Under the pieces are notes generated by a model. The model saw nothing but the letters and a program-made list of their open reading frames with translations, was not told where the DNA came from and did not search any database. Made by a program: the position numbers and the translations under genes. This document shows positions 8,622-10,492 of a DNA stretch of 12,551 bases, in pieces. The stretch's first letter is position 1. Every line of letters starts with the position of its first letter. This stretch comes from Candidatus Micrarchaeota archaeon (GTDB lineage: Archaea > Micrarchaeota > Micrarchaeia > Anstonellales > Anstonellaceae): NCBI GenBank assembly GCA_013331805.1, contig DUFS01000054.1:15589-28139 (forward strand). Reading direction: 5' to 3'.

Positions 8622-9295
8622 TCATGCAAAATTGCATGCTGCCCCGTTGCAGATTCCTGCGCATTTTGCGACAAAATCGTTGGTTCCGATTTCCTTCTTC
8701 CCAACGGAAATGCCTTCAATCACAGAATTGTAATGGAACCCAAAATTCTTTATAACAAGGTATCCGCGGCCCTCCCTGTCGCAGTTGTTCGTGGCGCCGT
8801 GGATGGTTGCCTGGAAATCCGGGTACGCCGCATTCCCGAACCTGAACCAGTTGTTGCACGATCCTCCGCCCCAATAGGTGGAGCAGGTCTCCTCGCCAGG
8901 CGCAAGTGTAATGTCCAAATCCCGATAAATTCCTTGTTCAACATCGTAATAGAATGAATCGCTGTCCCCCCTCCGGTAATCCCCGTTATAACAACCGTGC
9001 TGGAACCCGTATTCCTCACCTTGATGTGGAACTGGCTCACGACCCTGTTTGAAGTCTCGGTCCTTTCGAATGCTGGTCCGACTTCCACCAGGGCAAGCGG
9101 GCTTGCGGACTTCCAGTATATTTCGCTTTCAGCAAGCATTGCATCGCTGGAAGTGCCGGGAAAGAATCCCAGCAGCGCTATTGCCACAAGCGCTATCACA
9201 AGAACAACCGCGAGCAGCACCAGGTATTCGGTGGCACCCTGTCCGGCTTGAGAAAAAGTCGAAACTATCGAGGCGAATCGCCGTTTATGGCGCAT
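8622..9295 (-). pseudogene. Class III signal peptide (type IV pilin-like) protein split by a 1-nt frameshift
   Basis: AGQG|ATEYLVLLAVVLVIALVAIALLGFFPG prepilin-type motif. ORF 8750-9295 becomes R/P/T-rich after ITGGG, while an overlapping frame continues DSDSFYYDVEQGIYRDLDITLAPGEETC to the stop at 8622. One extra G in the G6 run (8966-8971) gives a single 224-aa protein. May be a sequencing error. Confidence 0.7.
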
Positions 9296-9296
9296 A

Positions 9297-9370
9297 TGCG
9301 GCTGCCGGGATTTGAACCCGGACCTCGAGCTTGGGAAGCTCAGATACTAACCAGGTTATACTACAACCGC
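9297..9370 (-). tRNA. tRNA-Gly (anticodon CCC), intronless, CCA not encoded
   Basis: Minus strand GCGGTTGTAGTATAACCTGGTTAGTATCTGAGCTTCCCAAGCTCGAGGTCCGGGTTCAAATCCCGGCAGCCGCA folds to a cloverleaf: acceptor GCGGTTG/CAGCCGC, D stem GTAT/GTAT, anticodon arm TGAGC-TTCCCAA-GCTCG, T arm CCGGG-TTCAAAT-CCCGG, discriminator A. Confidence 0.95.
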
Positions 9371-10387
9371 TTTGTAAGGAATTTCCCCCGCGTAGTTCGT
9401 TATTTCTTCATAAATATCTTTATTAGATGGGACGTATCCGCGCTTCACAAAATATTTGAACTTGACGATATTTTTGGGGTTCGAGCTCCCTACTAGCCTG
9501 AAGAATCTCAGTACTTCTTCCTGATCTTGAACCCTTATATCGTGTCCTTCTGTCGTATAGCCGCTTATCGTAAAACTTTTTGAAGGAGTGAAACCCGTCT
9601 TTTTTAGCAGGAAAACTATGCCTTTTCTGATGCTTGGAGACATTGTCTGAAATTCAATAATGGCTCGCCTGTAACCTTTTTGTTTGTAGTAAATGCCGCC
9701 ATCGGTGTCAACTAGCCCCCTGAGCGCGCCATAAACAAATTCTGTCCTTTCCAGTATCCATTTTGGCAAAGAAGCACGGTTTCTTATCTTGTTACCGGCA
9801 GTCAATCCCATGCCAGTTAAAAATTTGACTAACTCGCGCGAATAGCAGTCTAAAATTATTGTATTCTTATTGGTGTAGCTGGCAAATATCTTCGTCTCAA
9901 TTCCGAATAGTTTTCTAATTTCTCGCCTAATGTATTCCAAGTACTCCTTCTCATGAATTGCACATGTAATTGTCAGTTCATTTTTTCCGATATATCCATC
10001 ACCAAGAATTGCTCCAAACAATTCAGCAAGCTCCTCGCTTTTTTCAGGGATATCTATCTTTTTTGTCCACCTTCGTCCGCCAGTTGTTTTGCCCCCTACC
10101 TTCTGTCCCCAGTTTGACGACAATACCCCCTCCACCATTTCAGCCCTGATTTCACTGAACTTCCCTATCTGATATTTCTTGACGAGTTTCTTCGCTGTTT
10201 TGTAAGGGATGGTTGAATTTTCCTCCCCCCAGTCAATCCTCAATGTTTGGGCGCTGACTCCTGCCATTTCTGCCAAACCATCCCAAGTCAGTCCGCTTCT
10301 TTCCTTTATTTTTCTGATGAGTTCCCGTTGCAATCCCGCCTTGAATCTTAGGCGTTTGCCTGAGATGTTTTCTCCTCTCCTTCTCAT
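9356..10387 (-). CDS. Free-standing two-motif LAGLIDADG (DOD) homing endonuclease with N-terminal HTH domain
   Basis: Motif 1 ELAELFGAILGDGYI and motif 2 YGALRGLVDTDGGIY, both with the acidic catalytic residue. N-terminal XRE/Cro-like segment IKERSGLTWDGLAEMAGVSAQTL. No intein splice residues. More AT-rich than neighbours. Confidence 0.88.
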   Translation of the reverse strand: MRRRGENISGKRLRFKAGLQRELIRKIKERSGLTWDGLAEMAGVSAQTLRIDWGEENSTIPYKTAKKLVKKYQIGKFSEIRAEMVEGVLSSNWGQKVGGKTTGGRRWTKKIDIPEKSEELAELFGAILGDGYIGKNELTITCAIHEKEYLEYIRREIRKLFGIETKIFASYTNKNTIILDCYSRELVKFLTGMGLTAGNKIRNRASLPKWILERTEFVYGALRGLVDTDGGIYYKQKGYRRAIIEFQTMSPSIRKGIVFLLKKTGFTPSKSFTISGYTTEGHDIRVQDQEEVLRFFRLVGSSNPKNIVKFKYFVKRGYVPSNKDIYEEITNYAGEIPYKAVVV

Positions 10388-10408
10388 TATTTTTTTACTG
10401 CAGGGAGC

Positions 10409-10416
10409 TATTTAAA
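10409..10416 (-). promoter_or_regulatory. TATA box of the endonuclease gene (probably leaderless)
   Basis: TTTAAATA begins 29 nt before ATG 10387. No RBS precedes the ATG. Confidence 0.55.
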
Positions 10417-10427
10417 GCTATTATTTT

Positions 10428-10452
10428 TCCTACCAGGCTGGACTACAGCCGC
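10428..10452 (-). pseudogene. Stranded tRNA 5' fragment (positions 1-24, Gly-like)
   Basis: GCGGCTGTAGTCCAGCCTGGTAGGA has an acceptor 5' strand, T8 A9 and D arm TCC/GGA with the GG loop motif. Its GCGGCTG is the perfect complement of CAGCCGC at the 3' end of the tRNA at 9297-9370. Confidence 0.8.
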
Positions 10453-10474
10453 GCGTCTTTTGTTGGGGCTGCCC

Positions 10475-10492
10475 TATATTATAAAGTTTGCC
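10475..10492 (-). promoter_or_regulatory. BRE/TATA promoter upstream of the tRNA 5' fragment
   Basis: Minus strand GGCAAACTTTATAATATA; TTTATAAT starts 33 nt before fragment position 1. The AT core could also serve the divergent gene at 10552. Confidence 0.6.

Follow-up and report, generated by a model that had tools for sequence, protein, structure and literature searches.

The DNA considered here, referred to as the window, is a stretch of 12,551 nucleotides (nt) from a Candidatus Micrarchaeota archaeon (assembly GCA_013331805.1, contig DUFS01000054.1, positions 15,589 to 28,139), whose genome is a 1.19-Mb metagenome-assembled archaeal genome of 83 contigs with a completeness of 91.5%. Within the window, the gene for P0001, a LAGLIDADG protein with a helix-turn-helix (HTH) domain, is found inside a tRNA-Gly(CCC) gene, with a 5' fragment of the tRNA (the stub) on one side and a complete tRNA-Gly(CCC) on the other. 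This arrangement very probably represents a free-standing, intron-less homing cassette that resides in the tRNA gene between positions 24 and 25 and brings along a promoter, the endonuclease gene and its own variant of tRNA positions 1-24. Its parts and their surroundings, in the order of the minus strand, are as follows.

10475-10485, minus strand: TATA-like box, about 25 nt before the stub, read directly; putative promoter of the resident tRNA
10428-10452, minus strand: stub of 25 nt, tRNA-Gly(CCC) positions 1-24(25) with an S-type D-arm, identified by comparison with congeners
9345-10427, minus strand: inserted cassette of 1083 nt, bounds taken from empty sites, comprising a spacer that holds a putative promoter, the endonuclease gene and the replacement 5' part of the tRNA
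10388-10427, minus strand: A/T-rich spacer of 40 nt
10409-10416, minus strand: putative TATA-like box of the cassette itself, 21 nt before the ATG
9356-10387, minus strand: gene for P0001, 343 amino acids (aa), HTH plus double-motif LAGLIDADG protein, Pfam PF14528
9345-9370, minus strand: replacement tRNA 5' part, positions 1-24, with an R-type D-arm, overlapping the last five codons of the open reading frame (ORF)
9297-9370, minus strand: complete, presumably functional tRNA-Gly(CCC), predicted by ARAGORN and matching the full Rfam tRNA model (59.2 bits, E = 5.8e-11)

The TATA box, stub, spacer, ORF and tRNA-Gly(CCC) had been called in an earlier sequence-only reading of the window, and the coordinates of all five were confirmed. 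That reading had also noted that the first 7 nt of the stub pair perfectly with the 3' acceptor strand of the tRNA while the intact tRNA has a U5-G68 wobble, which is evident on direct inspection, and that the ORF is richer in A+T than its surroundings, for which we obtained a G+C content of 0.38-0.44 over the ORF versus 0.50-0.54 in the flanks. The stop codon of the ORF (TAA, 9356-9358) is formed by tRNA positions 13-15. A/T boxes resembling that ahead of the stub are found at an equal distance ahead of uninterrupted tRNA-Gly(CCC) genes in congeners. The stub is unique in the source genome, in which no other string lies within 5 substitutions of it, and a second tRNA-Gly(CCC) was not found there by ARAGORN, Rfam or string searches. 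An integrative element of the integrase type was considered and rejected, as the endonuclease gene stands alone within the 1083 nt. Besides the tRNA, a scan of the window against Rfam returned only one sub-threshold sRNA match, located elsewhere.

The empty site in related genomes

The region was compared by BLAST with 40 relatives, and the loci so identified were read directly; all genomes compared in this study are metagenome assemblies. Nine congeners (G005, G007, G010, G011, G013, G015, G018, G019 and G022) carry an uninterrupted tRNA-Gly(CCC) gene that starts with the stub sequence. Their first 25 nt match the stub exactly in eight cases, the ninth (G011) having one mismatch at position 5, and in all nine the stub-like part runs directly into the anticodon stem. 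It follows that 1083 nt have been inserted between tRNA positions 24 and 25, with a one-base ambiguity of the boundary due to one shared A. The gene context is also conserved, as the same 161-aa gene is located upstream of the tRNA in eight of the nine and the same EF-Tu-like gene downstream in seven. Three of the nine tRNA genes are intron-less; the rest have short introns, either at the canonical site or in the T-loop. An empty locus with an intact tRNA of this kind had been anticipated in the sequence-only reading, and it is borne out by these congeners, including the conserved upstream gene.

A close homologue of P0001 was not found in the 40 relatives, where the best match has 29% identity and occurs at other loci. 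The endonuclease is thus present in one of 23 searched genomes of the genus, at a site which is empty in nine congeners. Distant homologues of 331 aa in G005 and G022 have no tRNA nearby according to ARAGORN. A second empty site was recognised for a homologous locus, L034. A relative (G058) has a tRNA-Gly(CCC) gene with an intron but no endonuclease, and the 5' part of this gene agrees with the L034 stub in 24 of 24 positions. Precisely at the point where the stub stops, the gene of G058 goes on into the anticodon stem, so that the break position is the same. In both comparisons the endonuclease is present or absent at one precise site.

An endonuclease-bearing archaeal intron would give a similar picture, with the stub as 5' exon and the 1083 nt as a bulge-helix-bulge intron at 24/25. 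The lineage is rich in tRNA introns, non-canonical ones included (7 of the 12 tRNAs detected by ARAGORN in the source genome, and T-loop introns), pairing between the stub and the 3' acceptor strand is complete, and there is a LAGLIDADG-bearing insertion in the 16S rRNA gene of the same genome. However, when two bulge-helix-bulge geometries were scored at the insertion junctions, the register that would give the ancestral tRNA reached only 3/4 pairs in the central helix and 2/4 and 1/4 in the outer helices, and an alternative register scored 1, 0 and 1 with the first geometry and 2, 3 and 4 with the second, whereas three canonical introns in congener tRNA-Gly genes, used as controls, scored 4/4, 4/4 and 2-3/4 at their true splice sites. 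Such an intron would, moreover, have as its last segment a tRNA 5' part that is whole and well formed. The stub of L034 is not an exon, because its acceptor strand is unable to pair with the 3' end of the downstream tRNA. The same layout is also found in bacteria of the Candidate Phyla Radiation (CPR), and we know of no bulge-helix-bulge splicing system in bacteria. For these reasons we regard an intron of this type as highly improbable. A group I or other structured-RNA intron was rejected as well, as there is no Rfam intron match in the window; there is also no room for a ribozyme, because the insertion beyond the 40-nt spacer is either coding or tRNA sequence.

The endonuclease family and its association with tRNA genes

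By its motifs and fold, P0001 is a single-chain, double-motif LAGLIDADG homing endonuclease, for which nuclease activity and homing are predicted. Pfam assigns it to LAGLIDADG_3 (PF14528) with E = 6.7e-12 in two stretches. Across 38 aligned family members the cores of both motifs, G129-D130-G131 and D227/D229-G230-G231, do not vary, and both motifs have their acidic residues. In an AlphaFold (AF2) model with a mean predicted local distance difference test (pLDDT) score of 87.9, residues 12-89 form a helical HTH domain at the N-terminus, which a disordered linker connects to the LAGLIDADG core (118-330). The best Foldseek matches of this model are the TliVMA intein endonuclease (E = 1.9e-12) and I-Tsp061I (6.1e-10), followed by PI-SceI, I-DmoI and I-SceI, at identities of 14-27%; with E-values from 1.9e-12 to 1e-6 to such intein and intron enzymes, the model has the pseudo-dimeric alpha-beta-beta-alpha-beta-beta-alpha core. 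A profile search of PDB sequences gave four matches, including 7qsu and 2dch, and a search with the single P0001 sequence gave none. P0001 shares the fold of the catalytic core and both motifs with I-Tsp061I (2dch), I-DmoI (2vs7), the TliVMA intein (7qsu) and PI-SceI. These enzymes, however, are located in bulge-helix-bulge introns of rRNA genes or in inteins, where the host gene is restored by splicing, whereas P0001 lies in neither an intron nor an intein, has an additional N-terminal HTH domain and is distant in sequence from all of them.

A large protein database contains 94 homologues of P0001, about 60 of them at 41-69% identity, and 80 homologous loci could be fetched from named genomes. 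In 60 of these 80 loci, a tRNA on the same strand abuts or overlaps the 3' end of the ORF (the tRNA being assigned by eye in three loci where the predicted ORF end was wrong). The tRNAs are 18 Gly(CCC), 30 Ser(GGA), 4 Ser(GCU), 2 Glu, 2 Ala, 2 Gln, 1 Val and 1 Pro. The hosts of the Gly(CCC) loci are archaea of the DPANN superphylum, while Ser(GGA) loci occur mostly in CPR bacteria and Omnitrophota. Among the other 20 loci, 11 have a tRNA on the opposite strand at the ORF end and nine have neither.

The loci with an opposite-strand tRNA (L066, L082, L088, L089, L093, L098, L099, L102, L104, L105 and L113), mostly Gly(GCC) or Gly(UCC), belong to Iainarchaeota and some other archaea and form an enzyme clade of their own; here the ORF stops within the tRNA or directly next to it, and the same association is seen in the other orientation.

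Stubs recur together with the tRNAs. When 160 nt upstream were read, a tRNA 5' fragment ending past the D-stem was found in at least 11 of the 18 Gly(CCC) loci. A generic hidden Markov model of tRNA positions 1-27, applied to 150 nt before the start codons, gave 33 stub-like matches in 12,000 nt of upstream sequence versus 68 in the remaining 406,290 nt, an enrichment of about 16-fold, although the counts are set by a weak model of 27 positions. The proposal in the sequence-only reading that homologues should recurrently be bordered by a tRNA 5' stub and a complete tRNA is hence upheld. In 12 of the 18 Gly(CCC) loci the start codon is preceded, at a distance of 21-23 nt, by a TATA-like octamer, and 12 of the 19 octamer matches in the 120-nt upstream regions are at this distance. 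This position points to a promoter carried by the element and to a leaderless mRNA.

In five Gly(CCC) cassettes (L039, L040, L042, L044 and L045), a second D-arm-like string is located between the element's TATA box and the ATG; this string may represent an older stub nested in the cassette, or a site to which the enzyme binds.

In a tree of 61 of the proteins, from which L043 and L104 (X or stop) and partial ORFs were excluded, the enzyme clades follow the type of tRNA and cross phyla: there are 13 label changes, compared with a mean of 32.4 in shuffled data, and none of 200 shuffles was as low. P0001 is placed in an 11-member Gly(CCC) clade together with proteins from Pacearchaeota and Woesearchaeota (support of 99 in the Shimodaira-Hasegawa-like approximate likelihood ratio test, SH-aLRT). 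L035, at 66% identity its closest named homologue, has a frameshift.

A tandem partial duplication of a tRNA with an unrelated ORF in between, or a mis-assembly, might be suspected in a metagenome-assembled genome of 83 contigs, and short tRNA-like strings do arise by chance. However, the identical arrangement is present in two other metagenome contigs that were assembled separately (L131 and L134) and in contig pieces that extend across both junctions in other sequencing runs, and the layout is repeated in dozens of unrelated genomes. We therefore attach practically no weight to chance or artefact.

A domesticated protein deserves closer consideration, i.e. an immobile, vertically inherited LAGLIDADG/HTH protein similar to WhiA that regulates or processes the adjacent tRNA gene. 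WhiA, a LAGLIDADG-derived regulator, is itself among the Foldseek matches of P0001 (rank 9, E = 1.6e-7) and shares with it a LAGLIDADG scaffold and an HTH domain (8dy9_I), and the tight linkage to a tRNA in 60 of the 80 loci could be read in the same way. In WhiA, the HTH domain is C-terminal and the catalytic acidic residues are lost. P0001, by contrast, carries its HTH domain at the N-terminus, its family keeps the acidic residues of both LAGLIDADG motifs without exception, and the gene varies by presence and absence, with nine congeners empty at the site. The enzyme clades span phyla and track the tRNA type rather than the host, the G+C content is below that of the flanks, and the frameshifted copy at L035 is what would be predicted for a selfish gene. 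Domestication is, on balance, unlikely.

Replacement tRNA part and proposed homing cycle

The replacement 5' part differs from the stub by five substitutions and one indel; four of the differences, at positions 12, 13, 15 and 23, are in the D-arm, and the D-loop is one nt longer. Positions 8-26 of the window tRNA are identical to those of the native tRNA-Gly(UCC) of three congeners (G004, G009 and G016), and its variable loop is the same as in the tRNA-Gly(UCC) of G004 and G016. An exact search for the variant D-arm together with the CCC anticodon stem identified five metagenome contigs, two of which are from the window's organism. The other three (L130, L132 and L133) contain an endonuclease-free tRNA-Gly(CCC) with the R-type D-arm and a C at position 5. 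A TATA-like box lies at the normal distance in L130 and L132, and in L133 it is ahead of an intervening minihelix (see below). L130 comes from the nearest relative seen and is the orthologous locus, its EF-Tu-like neighbour having 78% identity as against 66-74% for others. The replacement D-arm is, as judged by these identities, a natural tRNA variant of this group rather than a foreign or bespoke sequence, and its immediate donor was probably a related archaeon.

Two claims of the sequence-only reading have to be modified accordingly. The first was that the element's own 5' part is fused to the 3' end of the host tRNA. A variant 5' part has indeed been inserted, but the join to the resident 3' end cannot be located: the R-type is marked by its D-arm and by position 47 in the variable loop, and the sequence 3' of position 47 is identical in both tRNA types. 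As the R-type markers reach at least to position 47, a crossover to resident sequence, if there was any, occurred in the identical 3' third. Markers in these places would be compatible with co-conversion of flanking sequence, the behaviour of free-standing endonucleases of the Seg/mob type. The second claim was that the tRNA is recoded. Its 5' part differs from the stub as stated, but it is a natural variant that also occurs in tRNA-Gly(UCC) and in the endonuclease-free alleles. The U5-G68 wobble seems to stem from a C-to-T change private to this tRNA and not from a hybrid joint, because the endonuclease-free R-type alleles have C5.

The sequences suggest the following course of events. P0001 would cut the common S-type tRNA-Gly(CCC) near the junction of D-stem and anticodon stem (positions 20-30), and the break would be repaired from a cassette-bearing copy. 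Positions 1-24 of the recipient would pair with the stub of the donor, and the recipient 3' part with the donor tRNA, so that both serve as homology arms. The 5' part of the recipient would then stay behind as stub, and the tRNA would be rebuilt with the R-type D-arm of the cassette, which is expected to remain uncut owing to its four differences and longer D-loop. Neither junction would hold a full target site, and splicing would be unnecessary. The tRNA would be transcribed through the endonuclease gene and freed by the normal end-processing enzymes. A stub that is regenerated from recipient DNA at each homing event would be fresh and host-like even where the enzymes are old.

Several observations weigh against such a homing cassette. 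Cleavage, expression and mobility are, to begin with, properties that we infer from sequence. The stop codon of the ORF lies inside the tRNA, and processing of the tRNA 5' end would sever the message before the stop. An empty allele of the window's own locus was not seen in the contigs of four DNA sequencing runs; the sole joint in these contigs (9321 to 10428, with 23 other letters between) represents an intact tRNA of another organism, with flanks unlike those of the window. Upstream stub matches are mostly low-scoring, with 17 of the 33 reaching at least 3 bits versus 14 elsewhere, and a pairwise comparison of stubs with their own tRNA gave p<0.01 in only 4 of 57 loci, a procedure which is insensitive and was replaced by the hidden Markov model. 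Stubs persist across enzymes that are just 45-69% identical, which could mean that the stub has a function of its own, although this is also what regeneration at each homing event would produce. The tree is a quick maximum-likelihood one with SH-aLRT support only, and the WhiA match must be counted here as well.

The endonuclease-free R-type alleles could be resistant variants of natural origin; alternatively, they could mark places where a cassette was lost through recombination between stub and replacement part, two segments that are identical in their first 11 nt except at position 5. The C5 of these alleles would fit a loss of the cassette, though it is a single base only. One may speculate, and we put this forward tentatively, that cycles of invasion and loss of such cassettes rewrite tRNA genes, the resistant D-arm being borrowed from a paralogous isoacceptor and the loss leaving an R-type tRNA behind. 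The expected outcome of a loss, a promoter-proximal and permanently resistant R-type tRNA with C5 as in the stub, is what L130 carries at the orthologous locus.

Comparable systems and other features of the genome

An intron or intein is generally considered necessary for a gene to survive invasion by a homing endonuclease. To our knowledge, the alternative strategy of supplying a replacement piece is little documented outside fungal mitochondria and phages. In the present case the target of this strategy is a tRNA gene whose empty site has been identified, and the family extends across DPANN and CPR.

One close parallel is found in the mobile ORFs (mORFs) of fungal mitochondria, which make gene hybrids in atp6 of Allomyces macrogynus and in atp6, atp9, cox2 and nad3 of Glomus sp. 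(PMC3630166). As described there, a LAGLIDADG (or GIY-YIG) ORF brings along one end of its target gene as a copy, with no intron or intein involved; the inserted, diverged copy replaces the native end, and the displaced native duplicate matches close relatives (PMC3630166). The differences are that the targets there are protein genes, that the exchanged part is the 3' end, and that in-frame fusion of the ORF is frequent (PMC3630166). In the window, the target is a tRNA gene, the 5' end is replaced, the native promoter remains with the stub while the cassette has a putative promoter of its own, and the family's hosts are DPANN archaea and CPR bacteria instead of organelles. The cassette thus forms a gene hybrid of the mORF type as a mirror image (5' instead of 3') in an RNA gene.

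A second parallel is SegB of phage T4, a free-standing GIY-YIG homing endonuclease encoded in the tRNA gene cluster of the phage (PMC2330249). According to the abstract of that study, SegB is likewise an intron-less homing system which recognises a conserved tRNA-gene motif and spreads its own gene together with adjacent tRNA sequence; it differs in belonging to another nuclease family, in being located between tRNA genes and in recognising a T-arm motif, and a split target, a stub or a replacement part are not described in the abstract (PMC2330249). The titles and abstract openings of the literature searched contain no description of LAGLIDADG genes inserted in DPANN or CPR tRNA genes, and a term search of a survey from 2024 on insertions in CPR rRNA gave no mention of tRNA (PMC11270868).

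Cassettes of this type are a concrete origin from which tRNA stubs, hybrid tRNAs and variant tRNA sequences can arise in reduced genomes, and they are a trap for tRNA annotation in DPANN and CPR genomes. They would also represent natural enzymes with long tRNA-gene targets, which can be directly assayed on the alleles predicted to be cut (S-type) and uncut (R-type). If cycles of invasion and loss do take place, homing endonucleases would drive tRNA turnover in DPANN and CPR, and this would be a route to broken or fragmented tRNA genes.

Some further features of the locus and the source genome should be mentioned. A 181-aa ORF (8750-9295, minus strand) begins 2 nt past the 3' end of the tRNA-Gly(CCC). 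The sequence-only reading had labelled it a pilin gene; the ORF matches no Pfam family. At the orthologous position of 12 related loci it is missing, the EF-Tu-like gene directly following the tRNA there, and its first 90 nt or so are repeated at many sites in related genomes; it looks like a second, separate insertion.

The tRNA-like minihelix in L133 has a counterpart in G005 (L019). It is located just upstream of an intact tRNA-Gly(CCC) (at about 2003-2043 in L019 and 2440-2480 in L133, in the latter between TATA box and tRNA) and is built from a 6-bp hairpin flanked by the two acceptor strands, GCGGCTG on the 5' side and CCAGCCGCA on the 3' side. A near-identical T-loop intron of about 45 nt occurs at the same position in the tRNA-Gly(CCC) of L130, the tRNA-Gly(UCC) of G010 (L114) and the tRNA-Gly(GCC) of G010 (L025, 2559-2720), which may reflect a transfer of introns, or gene conversion, between paralogous tRNA-Gly genes.

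ARAGORN reports 12 tRNAs in the source genome, seven of them with introns, and 16 tRNAs are above the cut-off of Rfam. Many have long introns (57-107 nt), and a tRNA-Gly(UCC) at the end of contig C56 has two, one in the anticodon loop and one in the T-loop. Standard tools probably miss many tRNA genes of this genome.

Two other LAGLIDADG-related sequences were noted in the source genome. A 232-aa LAGLIDADG ORF with 27% identity to P0001 is located within the 16S rRNA gene (G000:C10, locus L002, 1219-1917, minus strand), with rRNA sequence on both sides, and is probably an endonuclease-bearing rRNA insertion of the kind known from archaea and CPR. An open frame of 1233 aa (G000:C55, locus L003, 1870-2226) includes a LAGLIDADG-like stretch with 32% identity over 125 residues and is probably an intein-bearing gene.

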